A DNA stretch of 16,161 nt from a virus (lineage: Duplodnaviria > Heunggongvirae > Uroviricota > Caudoviricetes). This document shows, piece after piece, positions 6,845-15,917 of the stretch. A program made the position numbers and the translations under genes. The notes beneath the pieces were generated by a model. It had not been told where the DNA came from. It was given only the letters and a program-made list of their open reading frames with translations, and made no database searches. Position 1 is the stretch's first letter; every line of letters starts with the position of its first letter. The stretch is from positions 1-16,161 of IMG/VR virus record IMGVR_UViG_2737471845_000010. One strand, written 5' to 3'.

Positions 6845-7021
6845 TTAAGATAATGCAAAACAAATTAACCACACCACGACAACCGATGCTATTAACACCC
6901 TGATTGCAAACAGCGGGCTGATATGTCGAAAAGGATTTTCCCAGATAATAAAAGCCGCTGCCAGAAATGCACTGATAAGTAAAACAATAACAAACAGCTC
7001 AATTTTGATTATCCAGAACAT
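6845..7021 (-). CDS. small hydrophobic membrane protein (58 aa)
   Basis: Two predicted hydrophobic helices (IIKIELFVIVLLISAFLAAAFII and LFAIRVLIASVVVVWLICFAL); start overlaps the upstream stop. Confidence 0.45.
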   Translation of the reverse strand: MFWIIKIELFVIVLLISAFLAAAFIIWENPFRHISPLFAIRVLIASVVVVWLICFALS

Positions 7022-7023
7022 AT

Positions 7024-7320
7024 TCACTGCATCGCCTTCTGTAAAATAACCGCATGCCCCAGCTTCTCCGCCAGCGCCAGTTCTGCCTTAGCACCCGCCG
7101 ACCGCTGCCAGCCATTCAGCATGTAAATCGCATCCACGCAACGTATCATCGCCATGCAGATATCCATGTACTGCGACTGAGTCAGTCCGTCCGGAAGTAC
7201 TGCCGGGTTTAAGACGGTATGCCCTTCCCGTTTCAGTTCCTCTTCTGCCTTGTGGAACGCCTCACGGTTGAAATTTTTATACCCGGTCATCGGACCGGCG
7301 ATATAAACCCTCACCCTCAC
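7024..7320 (-). CDS. DUF4406-like protein (nucleoside 2-deoxyribosyltransferase-like fold)
   Basis: GTG start with strong AGGAGGTG RBS, overlapping the upstream stop. N-terminal RVYIAGPMTG…FN…AF motif typical of this family. Confidence 0.7.
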   Translation of the reverse strand: MRVRVYIAGPMTGYKNFNREAFHKAEEELKREGHTVLNPAVLPDGLTQSQYMDICMAMIRCVDAIYMLNGWQRSAGAKAELALAEKLGHAVILQKAMQ

Positions 7321-7709
7321 TCAATCACCTCCTGAAAATTACCCCGATAGAACGCCAGTACACGTTGCATTGATTCGCTGTTACGGCATTCCCGGCAAAT
7401 TATGTTCATGTCTCTGTCGTAGCGACGGATTTCACCATCAGGTAACTTCCGGACCAGTGCCGGGTCAGCTTTCTTCGGAGTTTTACACCACGCCTGATAC
7501 GCCTGTTCTGATACAAAAACACCGTGTTTACCGGATATGTACAAATCACCACAAGCAACCACATCCACAAGACAACGTCTGACCGTATGCCAGCCCGCCC
7601 CCGTTGCCCTCTCCAGTTGCGACATCGTCATGCGTTTGTTCCTGTGTATCAGCCCGATAATTCGCGCCTTCAGTTCTTCCCGCTGTTCGGGTGTAAAAAC
7701 GCTTGCCAT
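7317..7709 (-). CDS. hypothetical protein with predicted HTH segment (130 aa)
   Basis: AGGAGG RBS upstream of ATG 7709; segment MTMSQLERATGAGWHTVRRCL resembles a helix-turn-helix. Confidence 0.7.
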   Translation of the reverse strand: MASVFTPEQREELKARIIGLIHRNKRMTMSQLERATGAGWHTVRRCLVDVVACGDLYISGKHGVFVSEQAYQAWCKTPKKADPALVRKLPDGEIRRYDRDMNIICRECRNSESMQRVLAFYRGNFQEVIE

Positions 7710-7723
7710 GAGTCCTCCTGAAA

Positions 7724-8470
7724 TTACTTCACAACCCTTAAATGGCTGACATTTGAACGCCAGCTCTCCCAGTTAAAATTCACCCAGCGACCACCGTTCA
7801 TGGTCATGCGGTCCATCACGCGCTCGCCAAGCAGCGTATTCATTGCCGTATGGTTCAGGTTCGTCAGCATCCCGACGCTGTGCATCGAGGCTGTTCTGCG
7901 ATCGACTATCTGGTTCAGTGTGACCTGTTCGTTACGCGTATCCCGCTGCATACCAATTTCATCCAGGACAAGCAGGTCAACTTCACACAACCCCTGCAAA
8001 AATTTTTCGCCCGAGTTTTTGTTGTCGTAGTTGCCGTGTAACGCCAGCATCACATCCGCCACCGTCACCACAATCACGCTGCGACCTTTCGCCAGAAGAT
8101 GGTTGCCAATGGCTGCTGCCAGATGATTCTTTCCGGTACCCGGCTTACCGCTGAACACGAAATTTGTGCATCCGGTCATCATTTCTTCCGCGATGGATTT
8201 TGCCTGGCTCAGCGCGTGGCGTTGGCCATCGTTCTTCACCTGGTAATTCGCAAACGAACACTTCTGGTGCAACAGTTGGATACCGGAACGCTTCATAATT
8301 TTCTCCACCCGGATCTGGCGATTCTGGCGGTTAATTTCCTCACTACGCTTTCGCCCTTCTGCAAGCTGCCACTCTCGCCACTCGTCCACTGTCCGGTACG
8401 GCGCGGTTACATGCTGCGGGGCCAGCTTACGGATACGCTCAAGAACACCACCTGCCGCAATATTTTTCAT
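7724..8470 (-). CDS. DnaC/IstB-like AAA+ replication protein (helicase loader; Rac YdaV-like)
   Basis: Walker A motif GKPGTGKNHLAAAIG and Walker B-like LLVLDEIG; positioned immediately downstream of the replication initiator gene. Confidence 0.9.
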   Translation of the reverse strand: MKNIAAGGVLERIRKLAPQHVTAPYRTVDEWREWQLAEGRKRSEEINRQNRQIRVEKIMKRSGIQLLHQKCSFANYQVKNDGQRHALSQAKSIAEEMMTGCTNFVFSGKPGTGKNHLAAAIGNHLLAKGRSVIVVTVADVMLALHGNYDNKNSGEKFLQGLCEVDLLVLDEIGMQRDTRNEQVTLNQIVDRRTASMHSVGMLTNLNHTAMNTLLGERVMDRMTMNGGRWVNFNWESWRSNVSHLRVVK

Positions 8471-8476
8471 AACCCG

Positions 8477-9424
8477 TTACCCCCTGAATCCCGGCGGAAT
8501 TTCGGTATCCGGTTCAGAAATGTGATTCACACAACGCTGTACAGGCGAACGCCCCAGGCGGATGACCAGTTCGTCCCATTTTTCACGAAGCTTTGACGGG
8601 CTCATGACGTTTCTTACCCAGAATGGATCCCGTTGTACCCGACTGAACATTTCGCAAATTTGCCTGTGAGTTCTGCCATCCAGCACCCGCATTGTGCGCA
8701 CGTCATTGGCCCATGCTGTCCAGTTGGGTTCTTTCGGTCGCGTAATCTCGCCATCATCGCTGGCAGCCTGTTCGTAAAGACTCACGATTCGCCCCCAGAT
8801 CCACTGCGCACACGTCAAATCTTCCTGGCTGCCCCACTGGCGTTTTTTCGCACTGAACACAACCGCGTCAGGATGTCGGGTTAAAAAATCCTGTTCAGCC
8901 GTCTCCTCGTCCGGTTGCGAAGCTTCCGGACGAAAAGATCTTTTATCTGACGGATCAGGTTTTAATACTGACGGATCGGGGCCAACCATCGCCCCCCTAT
9001 CCGGCTGTTTTTTATCAATGGTTGATCCATCAAAATTTGAGGGGTCAACCGTTGAGGGGGCAATATTTGACGGGTCATTTTTTGCCTGGCTAATTTTTCT
9101 TTTCGGTTTATATGCCTCACGCGCCGCCGCTGCTGCTGCTTCGAGTTTTTCCACATTAAGACGGTAGATATTGCTTTCATTACGCCCACCGACCTTACGT
9201 TCCTCCTTCGTCAGCCAGCCGTTCTTTTCCAGTTCCGCTATCGCCGCTTTAACCGTTGATTCACTCTTTGCCCCAATCTGACGACGAATGGTCTCCACTG
9301 CAGGCCATGACACACCTTCGTCATTGCTGTAATCTGCAAGGCGAGCCATTACTGCCACCCTGGATAAGATCATGCCGGTGAAGGCACACCCTTCCCAGAC
9401 AAGACCATGAAGCTTGCTGCTCAT
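8477..9424 (-). CDS. phage replication initiation protein (lambda O-like functional analogue) with internal iteron origin
   Basis: GGAG RBS upstream of ATG 9424. N-terminal HTH-like segment; central repetitive DPSN/DPSV/DGST protein segment encoded by the iterons; followed by the DnaC-like gene. Confidence 0.85.
   Translation of the reverse strand: MSSKLHGLVWEGCAFTGMILSRVAVMARLADYSNDEGVSWPAVETIRRQIGAKSESTVKAAIAELEKNGWLTKEERKVGGRNESNIYRLNVEKLEAAAAAAREAYKPKRKISQAKNDPSNIAPSTVDPSNFDGSTIDKKQPDRGAMVGPDPSVLKPDPSDKRSFRPEASQPDEETAEQDFLTRHPDAVVFSAKKRQWGSQEDLTCAQWIWGRIVSLYEQAASDDGEITRPKEPNWTAWANDVRTMRVLDGRTHRQICEMFSRVQRDPFWVRNVMSPSKLREKWDELVIRLGRSPVQRCVNHISEPDTEIPPGFRG
8946..9115. repeat. candidate origin of replication: about five iterons (consensus TGA(C/G)GG(A/G)TC) plus adjacent AT-rich tract, inside the initiator gene
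   Basis: Copies at approximately 8948..8956, 8969..8977, 9038..9046, 9052..9060 and 9068..9076 (TGACGGATC, TGACGGATC, TGAGGGGTC, TGAGGGGGC, TGACGGGTC), followed by the AT-rich stretch 9077..9115. Architecture parallels lambda ori within gene O. Confidence 0.6.
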
Positions 9425-9447
9425 AAAAAACTCCGAACACCGTGCTT

Positions 9448-9873
9448 TTAGTGCATCACCACAGCATTTCCTGCCGGGCCACCACGATTCATCTGATTGA
9501 AACCGGCGATTGCCACTGCGACAAAATCATCAGCGTCTCTCACCAGTCGTTCCCGCGTCTCCACCAACTCCCGAAAATAGACTGAACTGTGGCTGCGCAT
9601 CCGGGCCACCAGCAGAGGTGGCATTGCTTTTTCGATAGCCGGTAACAACGCCTGAATTTTTTTAACCGCATCAGGAGTGTCTTTCTCTACCCAGCGGAAA
9701 ATTTTCTGGGTATTGCGAGCCAGGGCTTCCGGATGGCTATCGTCATACAGTTCAGGAAACGTCATACCCAACTCAAAATAAGCCTGGGTTATTCCAGCTG
9801 CTGGAACTTTTTCACCGTCCGGATGCGCCCAGACATTCATCGCCATGCGGATGTGTTCATGCTTGATTTTCAT
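9448..9873 (-). CDS. YdaT-like (CII-position) regulatory protein
   Basis: Begins MKIKHEHI, as I recall for the Rac YdaT family. ATG overlaps the stop of the Cro-like gene (ATGA). Position corresponds to cII in lambdoid layouts. Confidence 0.7.
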   Translation of the reverse strand: MKIKHEHIRMAMNVWAHPDGEKVPAAGITQAYFELGMTFPELYDDSHPEALARNTQKIFRWVEKDTPDAVKKIQALLPAIEKAMPPLLVARMRSHSSVYFRELVETRERLVRDADDFVAVAIAGFNQMNRGGPAGNAVVMH

Positions 9874-10085
9874 GAATCATTCTTTCCTTCGTTCGAGGTG
9901 CTATCCTGCTTCTTGTAAAGTTCTGGGTTGTATTTCAATTCACCGTTAGTAATTTCATCCAGCTCCATTGCTCGAAGTTTGGGAATAACTGCTTTCCACC
10001 GCACAACAGCCACATGTGAAATTCCAAGAGCCTCAGCTACTAGTCGCTTTTTTTTGAAATAGCGCAGAACATCATCTTTGAACAT
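9870..10085 (-). CDS. Cro-like repressor (DicC/YdaS-like small HTH protein)
   Basis: AGGAGAG RBS upstream of ATG 10085. 71 aa with HTH (RLVAEALGISHVAVVRWKA). Divergent from the CI-like repressor gene across an operator-bearing intergenic region. Confidence 0.8.
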   Translation of the reverse strand: MFKDDVLRYFKKKRLVAEALGISHVAVVRWKAVIPKLRAMELDEITNGELKYNPELYKKQDSTSNEGKNDS

Positions 10086-10114
10086 AAAACTCTCCTGTTA
10101 TTTCGAGCAGGAGG

Positions 10115-10176
10115 GTAACAATAGTTACATAGCAATGTCAACCATAGCAACATCACTTGGTAGTAACATTGGTTAC
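10115..10176. promoter_or_regulatory. OR-like operator region: two GTAAC-N4-GTTAC palindromes between the divergent cro-like and repressor genes
   Basis: GTAACaataGTTAC at 10115..10128 and GTAACattgGTTAC at 10163..10176, the latter directly abutting the repressor ATG. A TTGACA hexamer is present on the minus strand in this interval. Confidence 0.6.
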
Positions 10177-10851
10177 ATGAAAAACACTATCAGCGAACGT
10201 ATTCGGAATCGTCGAAAAGACGTTGGATTAACCCAACAGCAGGTTGCGAAAGCAATCGGCATATCTCGTGTATCCGTAACAAAATGGGAAAATGGCTCTT
10301 CAAAACCTGACGGTGAGAATTTACATCTACTGTCAAAATTGCTTTCCAAATCTCCTGAATGGATTCTTTATGGAAAGGACGGTCACGATAAAACCGATGA
10401 TCTGCGTCTGAATCAGTACCTTTACATTAGTGACAACATCGCCCGGTTGCCCGTTTTAACGTGGGAACAGGCTGGTTATTGGGATATGAGTTGCCCAGTA
10501 ACCGAGATTCCTGGTATTAAGAATTGGGTTGATGTCATGACAAAAACCGCTGAAAACTCTTTTTTATTGCATGTTGAGGGAGATGCGATGACAAACTCTA
10601 ACGGCCTCCCAACCATCCCCGACGGATCTACCGTGCTGATCACACCATGCTCAAGTAACATTAGAGAACTGGCGGGGAAAATAATCTTAATCCAATTGGA
10701 AGGAACGCCAAACGTAACACTAAAAAAAGTTGCGATTGACGGACCAAACATCTATCTGTTGTCACTGAATCCGCTTTACAAACCCATCGAACTGAATGGC
10801 GGTTACACCATTAAAGGTAAAGTTTCACAAATACATCAATACTTAGATTGA
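10177..10851 (+). CDS. CI-like prophage repressor (N-terminal XRE-type HTH plus C-terminal S24 LexA-like domain)
   Basis: HTH segment LTQQQVAKAIGISRVSVTKWENG. C-terminal domain aligns by eye with lambda CI (…EGDAMT…; …VTLKKV…). Start chosen at ATG 10177; the tracked ORF begins at TTG 10078 and would overlap the operators and the cro RBS. Confidence 0.85.
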   Translation: MKNTISERIRNRRKDVGLTQQQVAKAIGISRVSVTKWENGSSKPDGENLHLLSKLLSKSPEWILYGKDGHDKTDDLRLNQYLYISDNIARLPVLTWEQAGYWDMSCPVTEIPGIKNWVDVMTKTAENSFLLHVEGDAMTNSNGLPTIPDGSTVLITPCSSNIRELAGKIILIQLEGTPNVTLKKVAIDGPNIYLLSLNPLYKPIELNGGYTIKGKVSQIHQYLD

Positions 10852-13454: not shown

Positions 13455-15917
13455 ATGAGTAAAGTTTTTATTTGCGCCGCCATTCCGGACGAACAGGCAA
13501 TAAAGGAAGAAGGTGCAGTTGCTGTAGCCACTGCCATTGAAGCCGGTGACGAACGCCGCGCCCGTGCCAAATTTACCTGGCAATTCCTGGAGCAATATCC
13601 GGCTGCTCAGGACTGCGCTTATAAATTTCTTGTCTGCGAGGATAAACCCGGCATGCCCCGCCCTGCTATCGACTCTTGGGATACCGAATATATGCAGGAA
13701 AACCGCTGGGATGAGGAATCCGCTTCCTTTATTCCGGTCGAACCAGAATCCGATCCGATGAACGTCAATTTTGACAAGCTGTCCCTTGAAGTACAGAACG
13801 CGGTCCTGGTTAAGTTCGGTACATGTGAAAACATCACCGTTGATATGGCGATTGACGCGCAGGAATTACTGCAGGAAGACGTTGCTACCTTTGACGGGCA
13901 TATCGTTGAAGCACTGATGAAAACGCCTGAAATTAACGCTATGTATCCGGAACGCAAACTGTTCGCTATCGGATGGGTTAAACACAAATGTAATCCGGGT
14001 GCCAAATGGCCCGAAATTCAGGCTGAATTACGTAACTGGAAAAAACGGCAGGACGCAGAGCGCAAAGAGACTGGAAAATACACGTCTGTTGTTGATCTCG
14101 CCAGCGCCAGAGTCAATCAACAGAACACTGAAAACTCAGCAGGAAAAATCAACCCAGTCACTGCCGCCATTCGTCGCGAATACAAGCAGACATGGAAAAC
14201 GCTGGATGAAGAACTGGCCTACGCTCTCTGGCCTGGCGATATTAATGCCGGAAACATTGACGGCAGCATCCATCGCTGGGCAAAAAATGAAGTTATCGAC
14301 AAAGATCGCGAAGACTGGAAGCGCATCTCCGCATCAATGCGCAAACAGCCTGATGCGCTTCGCTACAGCCGCCAGACTATTTTTGGCCTTGTCCGTGAAC
14401 GACCGATCGACATTCACAAAGATCCCGTGGCACTGAACAAATACATCACTGAATACCTGACTACAAAGGGCGTGTTTGAAGATGACGAAGGAACAAATCA
14501 GGGCGCAGCTAATACTCTCTCGTCGCCAGTACCAGAAACTGATGCAGTGGAAACGGCAATTCCGGACAACGAAAAAACCGAATGCAAAGTGGAAGTCGAA
14601 CCATCTGTAGAGCGTGAGGGGCCGTTCTACTTCCTCTTCACCGACAAGGATGGCGAAAAATACGGTCGCGCAAACAAACTTTCTGGTCTGGATAAGGCGC
14701 TGGCTGCCGGGGCTACTGAAATCACGAAAGAAGAATATTTCGCCCGCAAAAACAGTACATACTCAGGTTCACAACAAAATACTGGTGCATCTGACACGAC
14801 CGCACAACCAGAGCCGGTAAAAGTTACCGCTGACGAAGTAAACAAAATTATGCAGGCAGCCAATATCAGCCAGCCTGACGCCGATAAGTTGCTTGCTGCC
14901 TCTCGCGGAGAATTTGTTGCAGGGATTAGCGACCCGAATGATCCGAAATGGGTTAAGGGGATCCAGACCCGCGATTCTGTAAACCAGAACCAGCAAGAAA
15001 CGGAACAAAACAGCCAAAATGCGTTACAAAACGAGCCAGAAACGAAACAACCTGAGCCAGTAGCGCAACAGGAACCGAAAAAAGTCTGCACCGCCTGCGG
15101 TCAGAGCGGTGGCGGCAACTGCCCTGATTGTGGCGCGGTGATGGGCGACGCAACATACCAGGAAACATTCGATGAAGAGAATCAGGTTGAAGTTCAGGAA
15201 AATGATCCGGAGGAAATGGAAGGCGCTGAACATCCACACAAGGAGAATGCTGGCAGCGCTCAGGACCACGCCAGCGATAATGAAACTGGCGGGACGGCAG
15301 ATCCCTTAATTGCGGTGAACGGTCATCACGTTATCACATCCACCAGCAGAGTGTGGTACCACCTGATGATCGACCTTGAAACAATGGGAACCAACACCAA
15401 TGCGCCCATCGTGGTTATTGGTGCGGTTTTCTTCGACCCACAAACAGGGGAAATCGGGCCAGTATTTTATATCGTTATCAGTCTGACTGACGCAATGAAT
15501 ACAGGGGCTGTTCCTGACGGTGGAACCATCAAATGGTGGCTGAAGCAGTCCAGTGAAGCCAGAGCTGCCATTTTAACAGGCCAGGTAAAACTGAAGGATT
15601 CCCTTTCGCGGTTTCGGGAGTTCATCAACGAATACTCAGATGAAAAATTCGTTCAGGTATGGGGTAATGGTGCAACTTTCGATAACGCAATTTTGCGCAC
15701 CTCATACGAACGTCTGGACATCCCCTGCCCGTGGCGCTACCACAACGATCGCGATGTACGCACAATCGTTGAGCTGGGAAAAACAATCGACTTTGATGCC
15801 AGAACCGTTATTCCATTCGAAGGCGTGCGCCACAATGCACTGGATGACGCCCGTCACCAGGCAAAATACGTTTCAGCAATCTGGCAAAAACTGATCCCGA
15901 ATCCGGTTGATTTTTAA
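13455..15917 (+). CDS. large early-left protein (820 aa) with C-terminal DEDDh 3'-5' exonuclease domain; resembles prophage proteins annotated as exodeoxyribonuclease VIII
   Basis: C-terminal motifs MIDLETMGT (Exo I, D-x-E), WGNGATFDNAIL (Exo II), HNALDDARHQAKY (Exo III, H-x-D). Central acidic/Q-rich low-complexity linker containing a CxxC…CxxC zinc-ribbon (CTACGQSGGGNCPDCG). Occupies the position of the recombination/exonuclease gene in the early-left operon. Confidence 0.85.
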   Translation: MSKVFICAAIPDEQAIKEEGAVAVATAIEAGDERRARAKFTWQFLEQYPAAQDCAYKFLVCEDKPGMPRPAIDSWDTEYMQENRWDEESASFIPVEPESDPMNVNFDKLSLEVQNAVLVKFGTCENITVDMAIDAQELLQEDVATFDGHIVEALMKTPEINAMYPERKLFAIGWVKHKCNPGAKWPEIQAELRNWKKRQDAERKETGKYTSVVDLASARVNQQNTENSAGKINPVTAAIRREYKQTWKTLDEELAYALWPGDINAGNIDGSIHRWAKNEVIDKDREDWKRISASMRKQPDALRYSRQTIFGLVRERPIDIHKDPVALNKYITEYLTTKGVFEDDEGTNQGAANTLSSPVPETDAVETAIPDNEKTECKVEVEPSVEREGPFYFLFTDKDGEKYGRANKLSGLDKALAAGATEITKEEYFARKNSTYSGSQQNTGASDTTAQPEPVKVTADEVNKIMQAANISQPDADKLLAASRGEFVAGISDPNDPKWVKGIQTRDSVNQNQQETEQNSQNALQNEPETKQPEPVAQQEPKKVCTACGQSGGGNCPDCGAVMGDATYQETFDEENQVEVQENDPEEMEGAEHPHKENAGSAQDHASDNETGGTADPLIAVNGHHVITSTSRVWYHLMIDLETMGTNTNAPIVVIGAVFFDPQTGEIGPVFYIVISLTDAMNTGAVPDGGTIKWWLKQSSEARAAILTGQVKLKDSLSRFREFINEYSDEKFVQVWGNGATFDNAILRTSYERLDIPCPWRYHNDRDVRTIVELGKTIDFDARTVIPFEGVRHNALDDARHQAKYVSAIWQKLIPNPVDF

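Follow-up and report, generated by a model that had tools for sequence, protein, structure and literature searches.

A probable replication origin with its own type of iteron inside the initiator gene of a Rac-like lambdoid prophage

The stretch of DNA analysed here (the window) comprises 16,161 bp of a tailed virus of the class Caudoviricetes, IMG/VR record IMGVR_UViG_2737471845_000010, and is the early part of an Escherichia coli prophage of the lambdoid, Rac-like kind. Its genes follow the order cI / cro / cII-like / O / loader / ... / RusA / Q. The gene in the O position is a minus-strand open reading frame at 8477-9424, which was translated into a replication initiator of 315 residues and which contains the repeats that are the subject of this report, as a preliminary description of the window had stated. 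It is flanked by a CII/YdaT-like gene and a gene for a DnaC-like helicase loader. We conclude that the segment 8902-9078, perhaps extending to 9112, is very probably the replication origin of the prophage, located in the linker-coding part of the initiator gene. An origin inside the initiator gene is the textbook arrangement; what is new is the iteron and the DNA-binding domain that goes with it, in other words the specificity type and not the kind of system. The genes and domains concerned are as follows.

8477 to 9424, minus strand: initiator gene (315 residues), encoding an N-terminal winged-helix domain, a predicted disordered linker and a C-terminal domain (Pfam HTH_36, PHROG 391, AlphaFold2)
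9110 to 9424, minus strand: N-terminal winged-helix DNA-binding domain (residues 1-105), the presumed reader of the iterons (AlphaFold2, Foldseek, co-occurrence with the repeats)
8546 to 8902, minus strand: C-terminal domain (residues 175-293), homologous to the C-domain of phi80 gp15 (BLASTP; predicted local distance difference test score, pLDDT, 85-92)
7724 to 8470, minus strand: DnaC-like helicase loader gene, directly downstream of the initiator gene (Pfam IstB_IS21 and Bac_DnaA; PHROG 50 'DnaC-like helicase loader')

The repeats fall into two parts. The first is an array of direct repeats with internal dyad symmetry, in which four 12-bp units of the TTGA-CCCC-TCAA type (TTGA-N4-TCAA) follow each other at an exact period of 15 bp over 9022-9078, with one degenerate unit in register behind them. 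On the coding strand the array reads AAT GACCCGTCAA ATA TTGCCCCCTCAA CGG TTGACCCCTCAA ATT TTGATGGATCAA CCA TTGATAAAAAAC, and its parts are listed below.

9067 to 9078, minus strand: iteron 1, coding strand ATGACCCGTCAA
9052 to 9063, minus strand: iteron 2, coding strand TTGCCCCCTCAA
9037 to 9048, minus strand: iteron 3, equal to the family consensus, coding strand TTGACCCCTCAA
9022 to 9033, minus strand: iteron 4, with its centre reversed in orientation and holding a GATC, coding strand TTGATGGATCAA
9007 to 9018, minus strand: degenerate fifth unit, in register 15 bp past iteron 4, with one half-site left, coding strand TTGATAAAAAAC
8978 to 9006, minus strand: G+C-rich spacer (27-30% A+T) with a decayed unit, which is GGGGGGCGATGGTT in the window, AAGGGGTCAATGGTT in Erwinia and AAGGGGTCAACCATT in Salmonella (loci L010, L011, L088)

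The preliminary description had reported five close copies of TGA(C/G)GG(A/G)TC spaced 14 to 21 bp apart. Four exact matches to TGASGGRTC were found in the region (8948, 8969, 9038 and 9068, plus strand), and the fifth copy (TGAGGGGGC at 9053) has one mismatch. A sixth unit (9022-9033, TTGATCCATCAA) had been overlooked because its centre is inverted, and the copies belong to two classes. The spacing had to be corrected: there are two clusters, one at 15/15/15 bp (9022-9078) and one at 21 bp (8947-8977), and their nearest motif starts, 8969 and 9038, are 69 bp apart. The encoded peptides given earlier, DPSN/DPSV/DGST, agreed with the translation, in which the units encode NDPSN, IAPST, VDPSN and FDGST as well as PDPSV and PDPSD. 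Only one more match to TGASGGRTC occurs in the window (11484); the expectation for the whole window was about 0.39, and five matches were reached in 0 of 200 shuffles. Tandem Repeats Finder independently returned 9030-9077, with a period of 15 and 3.2 copies. With up to two mismatches allowed, TTGASSSSTCAA has four matches within 60 bp, a number reached in 0 of 1000 Markov-simulated windows. The whole-window total for this motif with two mismatches, 8 vs 7.3 expected, was not above chance, and only its clustering and exact phasing are significant.

Relatives were obtained by a scan of one genome per species, which gave 78 loci, and from phage loci. Together they supplied a comparison set of 69 non-identical genes that encode this N-domain and represent about 30 genera of enterobacteria. 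Conservation of the repeats in related initiator genes, on which the preliminary description had made its claim depend, was found: the two-part layout is kept in SfII, SfIV, Kati, PhiR49_1 and Klebsiella P7641 (about 69-72% nucleotide identity), and the repeats are kept in the 78 genomic loci as well. The pooled self-identity of the linker DNA from the 69 genes was 0.50, 0.46 and 0.43 at lags of 15, 30 and 45, respectively, vs about 0.24 at other lags, and the DNA encoding the N-domain gave no 15-bp lag signal. Two types of unit were collected by iterative weight-matrix refinement.

Window-type units, 8 genes: 51 units, 4-11 per gene, GAC CCC YCA ANN RTT, i.e. TTGA-CCCC-TCAA
SfII-type units, 61 genes: 390 units, 4-10 per gene, GAC SCR TCA AAA TCT

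Every unit is in frame, and the dominant spacing is 15 bp. In the window-type units conservation is highest at positions 9 (A, 97%) and 15 (T, 97%), both of them third positions of codons, while the encoded pentapeptides are diverse, with 27 different ones in the 51 window-type units and 95 in the 390 SfII-type units. In the window type, Ser, Pro or Leu is encoded at codon 3 (TCA, CCA or TTA), and codon 5 takes the form ATT, GTT or TTT. The centre is CCCC in 61% and GGGG in 37% of these units, so that the dyad is used in both orientations; the switch turns DPS into EGS or DGS and leaves the TTGA/TCAA arms in place. Serine at unit codon 3 is written TCA in 27 of 27 and 323 of 351 units, compared with 16% elsewhere in the same genes. 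An unbiased count of every linker codon gave the following values.

Ser TCA + TCT: 85% in the linker, 26% in the rest of the same genes
Ser AGY (AGC + AGT): 6% in the linker, 47% in the rest of the same genes
Lys AAA: 93% in the linker, 62% in the rest of the same genes

The third positions 9, 12 and 15 of the iterons carry 1.07-1.77 bit. At conserved N-domain residues of the same genes the third positions average only 0.62 bit, which means that synonymous sites are otherwise largely randomised, and yet the per-gene unit consensus is almost identical in all 61 SfII-type genes. These results indicate that selection acts on the DNA and not on the peptide, since the pentapeptides vary freely while the third positions are fixed; the peptide encoded by the iterons appears to be largely free to vary. 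The iterons must stay in frame, and units would therefore be gained and lost in 15-bp (5-codon) steps. Among close E. coli alleles the array has 2, 3, 4 or 5 units, and the second repeat class, class B (described below), has 1 or 2; the alleles always differ by whole units. Such whole-unit alleles of E. coli and E. marmotae are represented by P0012/L090, P0014, P0006/L091, P0013, P0005 and P0016. The prophage with the 2-unit allele, from E. marmotae, no longer has its DnaC-like loader gene, and for this reason the allele may be a decaying replicon.

The repeat type follows the DNA-binding domain. Window-type genes contain 6.4 units per gene when scanned with their own matrix vs 1.4 with the other, and SfII-type genes contain 6.4 vs 0.8. 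Outside the linker the matrices match 33 and 10 times in 48 kb with both strands scanned. A third N-domain type on the same C-domain (mEp460_ev081, L017/L018, P0096) has neither unit and carries its own GGTCAAAA-type repeats; the homology of these genes with the window breaks at 8946, just past the last class B repeat. In many other loci the similarity to the window protein is confined to residues 1-171/178, which comprise the N-domain and the repeats, and an unrelated C-terminal domain follows. The N-domain with its repeats is thus joined to at least two unrelated C-terminal domains and, among the loci compared, is always accompanied by repeats. This co-occurrence across swapped C-domains indicates that the N-domain and the repeats move as one cassette, and the sequences fit the classical lambdoid pattern in which DNA-binding domain and repeats form a unit. 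The distinct initiator-origin specificity proposed earlier is borne out to the extent that the repeat type tracks the N-domain subtype, as that proposal predicts. Binding of the iterons by the cognate N-domain is putative and is suggested by this co-variation and joint travel.

The same cassette was found upstream of a DnaC-like loader (E. coli), of a lambda-P-like loader (Salmonella), or of no loader (Citrobacter, SfII/Kati-type phages); representative loader contexts are L088 3499-4230, L089 3493-3960, L091 3087-3833 and L003 895-1380. The extreme C-terminus of the initiator changes with the partner, ...GFRG vs ...EGWRDVL or EAWENTL. Phages with otherwise different O genes match the last 63 nt of the initiator gene at 90-95%, which places a module junction inside the 3' end of the gene. 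The last 19 residues (..VNHISEPDTEIPPGFRG) are identical at 13 of 19 positions to the tail of YdaU from the K-12 Rac prophage (window 8477-8539; L001 3418-3474). The C-terminal tail may be a docking peptide for the DnaC-like loader, yet the loader-less SfII-type genes end in IPAGFRG too.

At the protein level, the full-length initiator matched PHROG 391 'replication initiation O-like' (E 3e-113), and Pfam HTH_36 was found at residues 25-71, whereas Phage_rep_O, the family of the lambda O N-domain, was not the match. A sequence search of the PDB with the initiator gave nothing significant (best E 0.03, an unrelated enzyme), and NCBIfam contained no model matching the initiator. The AlphaFold2 model had a mean pLDDT of 67.7, with folded parts at residues 1-104 and 175-293 and a linker at residues 107-173 with pLDDT below 50, encoded by 8906-9106. 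The repeats occupy nt 347-478 of the gene, corresponding to residues 116-160 between the folded domains, and are thus predicted to encode a disordered linker; the protein would therefore tolerate an origin in this segment. The N-domain was modelled as four helices and a beta-hairpin wing (pLDDT 73-88). Foldseek related it weakly (E about 4e-3) to dimeric winged helix-turn-helix (wHTH) regulators of the PadR/MarR/ArsR type, a likeness to dimeric proteins with which dyad-symmetric sites would fit. The C-domain was modelled as helical and gave a BLASTP match to phi80 gp15 with 35% identity over 124 residues (E 7e-26). The likeness to lambda O was judged through Pfam, PHROG 391 and phi80 gp15, with an HTH_36 N-domain and a phi80-like C-domain.

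The second part of the layout lies on the promoter-distal side of the array, and it is listed here together with an A-rich tract on the other side.

8968 to 8977, minus strand: class B repeat 1, GATCCGTCAG, encoding the DPS of the near-invariant DPDPSV; almost invariant in all subfamilies
8947 to 8956, minus strand: class B repeat 2, GATCCGTCAG, 21 bp from class B repeat 1 (direct-repeat listing and relatives)
8932 to 8967, minus strand: family-conserved AT-rich tract, the proposed unwinding element; class B repeat 2 lies in it, as do two of the GATC sites (three in all at 8937-8977)
8902 to 8938, minus strand: inverted repeat TCTTTTCGTCCGG-N11-CCGGACGAGGAGA, directly past the AT-rich tract, with 13-nt arms that are 85% complementary
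9079 to 9112, minus strand: A-rich tract, promoter-proximal to the array, encoding KPKRKISQAKN; 60-67% A+T in 30-nt windows

The class B pair encodes DPDPSV...DPSD, which is conserved in all N-domain subtypes. Its aspartate codon is GAT in both copies of the window and in all sampled relatives that keep the aspartate, and this codon creates a GATC. Three GATC sites are present within 41 bp (8937-8977) and four within 91 bp (8937-9027), although GATC is rarer than expected in the window as a whole (40 observed vs 58.6 expected), and 62 of the 69 relatives have at least two in the class B zone. Separately, an adenine methyltransferase gene lies two genes downstream of the initiator gene in SfII/Kati-type phages and directly downstream in Klebsiella P7641. 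In the transcription direction, a G+C-rich spacer of about 25-30 bp is followed by the AT-rich tract and then by the inverted repeat. Over the 69 genes, aligned on the first class B GAT, the A+T content reaches its maximum of 73% at +25 nt, between G+C-rich flanks of 37-42% A+T. The AT-rich stretch that holds the class B repeats ends in AAAAGATCT. Beyond it, AAAAGATCTTTTCGTCCG of the window resembles AAAAGATCTTCGTCCG of phi80 at an equivalent distance from the C-domain, and AAAAGATTATTCGTCAG of lambda.

This organisation was compared with known lambdoid origins. In the records of phi80 and lambda, initiator-binding sites are annotated within the initiator gene itself, and behind these sites both phages have an AT-rich stretch and then an inverted repeat around GAATTC (sequence records; PMC7466680). 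As in ori-lambda (gene O; also Stx phages 933W and P27), the window has its origin in the middle of the initiator gene, with several dyad-symmetric repeats and with the AT-rich tract and the inverted repeat on their promoter-distal side. The probable origin is likewise located in the early operon, downstream of cro and cII, the loader gene comes directly next, and the number of units varies, as it does among the lambda relatives themselves, with 4 iterons in lambda and 6 in Stx phages (PMC7466680). The lambda-ori arrangement claimed in the preliminary description was thus recovered, in the order iterons, AT-rich tract and inverted repeat along the transcription direction and together with a C-domain of the phi80 gp15 type. 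The iterons themselves differ from the lambda and phi80 sites in length, period and sequence. Those of lambda are 18 bp long with a period of about 20-24 bp, compared with 12 bp at 15 bp in the window. Lambda O has an N-domain of another family and not HTH_36, and the loader is P in lambda and DnaC-like here. A G+C-rich spacer before the AT-rich tract, and a conserved GATC-bearing repeat pair within the tract, also set the window apart from lambda. The origin in phi80 gene 15, with four annotated gp15 sites, shares with the window the homologous C-domain, the placement of the repeats relative to it, and the sequence past the AT-rich tract mentioned above. Its sites are 15-16 bp long with a 21-bp period and of the CCCGAAAACGGGAA type, unlike the units of the window; its N-domain is unrelated to that of the window, and its partner gp14 is P-like.

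The closest phage relatives, SfII and SfIV (Shigella), Kati and PhiR49_1 (Escherichia) and Klebsiella P7641, belong to the same family over their full length (55-65% amino-acid identity) and share the two-part layout including the class B GATCCGTCAG pair. They differ in the N-domain subtype and in their units, which are GAC-SCR-TCA-AAA-TCT (SDPSK/SDASK) vs TTGA-CCCC-TCAA in the window, and most of them are without a loader gene downstream of the initiator. The initiators of these five phages are annotated as 'primosomal protein' or 'replication protein O', and no origin is annotated in their five records.

By analogy with lambda O and phi80 gp15, we infer the following course of initiation. 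The transcript from the early rightward-type promoter would pass through cro, the CII/YdaT-like gene and the initiator gene. The winged-helix N-domain of the initiator, probably as a dimer, would bind the four 12-bp iterons (TTGA-CCCC/GGGG-TCAA) spaced 15 bp apart, and a close-packed nucleoprotein complex would form on the array. This complex may destabilise the adjacent AT-rich tract (about 8932-8967), which carries two GATCCGTCAG repeats, maybe auxiliary initiator sites, and three Dam (GATC) sites, so that unwinding would take place at 8932-8967. The C-domain and tail of the initiator would then recruit the phage DnaC-like loader, which would bring the host DnaB helicase to the opened DNA.

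Several points weigh against the origin assignment and this course of events. The searchable literature contains no binding, unwinding or replication experiment for this initiator family, and a 2025 paper described related O-only lambdoid replication modules as never studied (PMC12315714). The AT-rich tract of the window is modest (57-70% A+T) and is parted from the array by about 25 bp of G+C-rich spacer, which lambda does not have. With the 15-bp period, each site points to almost the opposite side of the helix from the next, while the lambda spacing is roughly two turns, and the geometry of the complex is therefore not readable from lambda. The class B repeats may act as initiator sites, belong to the unwinding element, or serve as targets of Dam/SeqA. 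The right arm resembles lambda and phi80 over a short length, and its alignment is ambiguous, since MAFFT paired TTCGTCAGA of lambda with a class B repeat and not with the inverted repeat; we therefore claim only a short similarity. With regard to the statistics, the loci are related and Fisher p-values overstate their independence. The choice of units by weight matrix favours the consensus, which makes the TCA test on unit codons partly circular, and this was the reason for counting every linker codon.

The family may also be more than one further specificity type of the lambda kind and use a differently built initiation complex. It would combine wHTH dimers every 15 bp on alternating faces and with sites in both orientations, unwinding gated by Dam/SeqA, and a portable docking tail. 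That all of this holds together is possible, but we consider it rather unlikely. The gating may operate by Dam methylation and SeqA through the two near-invariant GATC-bearing GATCCGTCAG repeats and, if true, would tie the replication of the prophage to the methylation state of its host, as is the case at oriC and P1 oriR. A portable docking peptide may be formed by the conserved ...IP(P/A)GFRG tail, which, if true, would let one origin cassette use the phage DnaC-like loader, a lambda-P-like loader, or the host DnaC in loader-less phages.

The units could also be true initiator sites that serve autoregulation, handcuffing-type copy-number control or exclusion, with unwinding and helicase loading elsewhere. 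The initiator sites of iteron plasmids double as control sites, and the comparative evidence given above speaks for constraint at the DNA level and not for origin firing. However, the units lie where an O-like gene encodes its linker and are followed by the conserved AT-rich tract and the inverted repeat, as in the experimentally established origins of lambda and phi80, and the C-domain is a homologue of the phi80 gp15 C-domain. Moreover, no further repeat array or AT-rich tract candidate was seen in 7000-10200. We therefore give a pure control function little credence.

Equally improbable is the layout that follows from the preliminary description, in which all six copies would be equivalent iterons and unwinding would occur at the A-rich 9079-9112, a mirror image of lambda. 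The AT-rich tract named there (9077-9115, 60-67% A+T) does exist; it lies on the N-terminal side and is not conserved throughout the family, and the conserved tract is the one on the opposite side, at about 8932-8967. In the window 9079-9112 is as AT-rich as the other tract, the relatives of the window-type subfamily also encode a basic, lysine-rich stretch upstream of the array, and class B GATCCGTCAG has GAYCCSTCA in common with the array units. Over the 69 genes, however, the A+T content upstream of the array averages only 50-58%, so that this position is not AT-rich family-wide, in contrast to the downstream peak of 73% between G+C-rich stretches, and in the SfII-type relatives examined the upstream side lacks an AT-rich stretch. 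The class B repeats differ from the array units in spacing (18/21/24 bp across relatives), in their flanks and in the aspartate codon (always GAT vs mostly GAC), and they are invariant over N-domain subtypes whose array units differ.

The least probable explanation is that the repeats are a slippage-made, low-complexity coding repeat for a flexible Asp/Pro/Ser-rich linker, with no cis role for the DNA and the origin elsewhere in the prophage: the predicted disorder, the strict reading frame and the variable unit number, as slippage or unequal recombination would give, are in its favour, but neutral concerted evolution would let the units drift, whereas one DNA consensus is kept in about 30 genera whose N-domain synonymous sites carry 0.62 bit, third codon positions are the most conserved while the peptide varies, synonymous codon choice is extreme, both unit orientations occur with the dyad arms kept, the unit type follows the subtype of the DNA-binding domain, and the replication module showed no further repeat array.

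Two known origin types were considered and rejected. The first is oriJ of the K-12 Rac prophage. Its oriJ/YdaU-YdaV region resembles the window in having a repressor, a cro-like gene, YdaT, an initiator, a DnaC-like loader of the YdaV type and YdaW/DUF977. YdaU, however, is a DUF1376 protein whose similarity to the window initiator is confined to the 19-residue tail, and since both the protein family and the repeats are different, the window origin is not oriJ. An internal repeat of K-12 ydaU, AAGCAGATGTTCAA, occurs in four copies with spacings of 33/33/12 bp (L001 2972-3063) and is a candidate for the oriJ iterons. The second is an iteron plasmid origin of the Rep_3/RepA type, with intergenic iterons and DnaA boxes; the repeats of the window lie within coding sequence. 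DnaA boxes as part of the origin were rejected as well, with one 1-mismatch match near the array and the others scattered without clustering at it. The match near the array, the 9-mer TTTTCCACA, is located at 9147-9155 within the initiator gene, about 70 bp upstream of the array. The window contains 9 such 1-mismatch matches vs 3.8 expected, and 9 were reached in 1 of 200 shuffles.

With regard to the neighbouring genes, the loader at 7724-8470 scored 489 bits with NCBIfam PRK12377 and 313 bits with the DnaC equivalog model, which is under its cut-off of 357. Downstream of the initiator gene and on the same strand are the DnaC/IstB-like loader, DUF977, DUF4406, DUF968, RusA and Q; the YdaT/CII-like gene and cro are upstream on this strand, and the genes for a CI-type repressor and a RecE-like exonuclease are on the opposite strand. 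The exonuclease gene holds a tandem repeat of its own at 14991-15050, with a 21-bp period, 2.9 copies and the consensus CAGCCAGAAACGAAACAAAA.

The initiator gene was 96.6% identical to its top match among complete E. coli genomes. DNA resembling it is present in 2986 of 5426 of these genomes and is full-length (at least 80% covered) in 1515. The window-type N-domain and origin were absent at the megablast level from 50,697 phage-isolate records, and this N-domain subtype was seen only in bacterial genomes, as prophages. Among the matches listed, the phage matches of '95-99%' to the initiator gene cover only query positions 1-63, the common 63-nt 3' tail.

The searchable literature, from which many subscription reviews are missing, contains no account of this origin type, and an earlier in-silico mention is possible. 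No concept is overturned, and the result should be useful and unsurprising to the specialist. The family of origins is widespread, with relatives in serotype-converting Shigella phages and in enterobacteria of about 30 genera. Its coordinates, unit consensus and co-varying domain help to predict replicon incompatibility and specificity among co-resident prophages, and they may further serve for new lambdoid-type plasmid replicons and for interpreting coverage peaks in induced lysogens. The origin is also a clean example of a DNA element that constrains synonymous sites within a gene. Finally, it provides a handle on how loader-less lambdoid phages begin replication, which was called not yet understood in the 2025 paper (PMC12315714).

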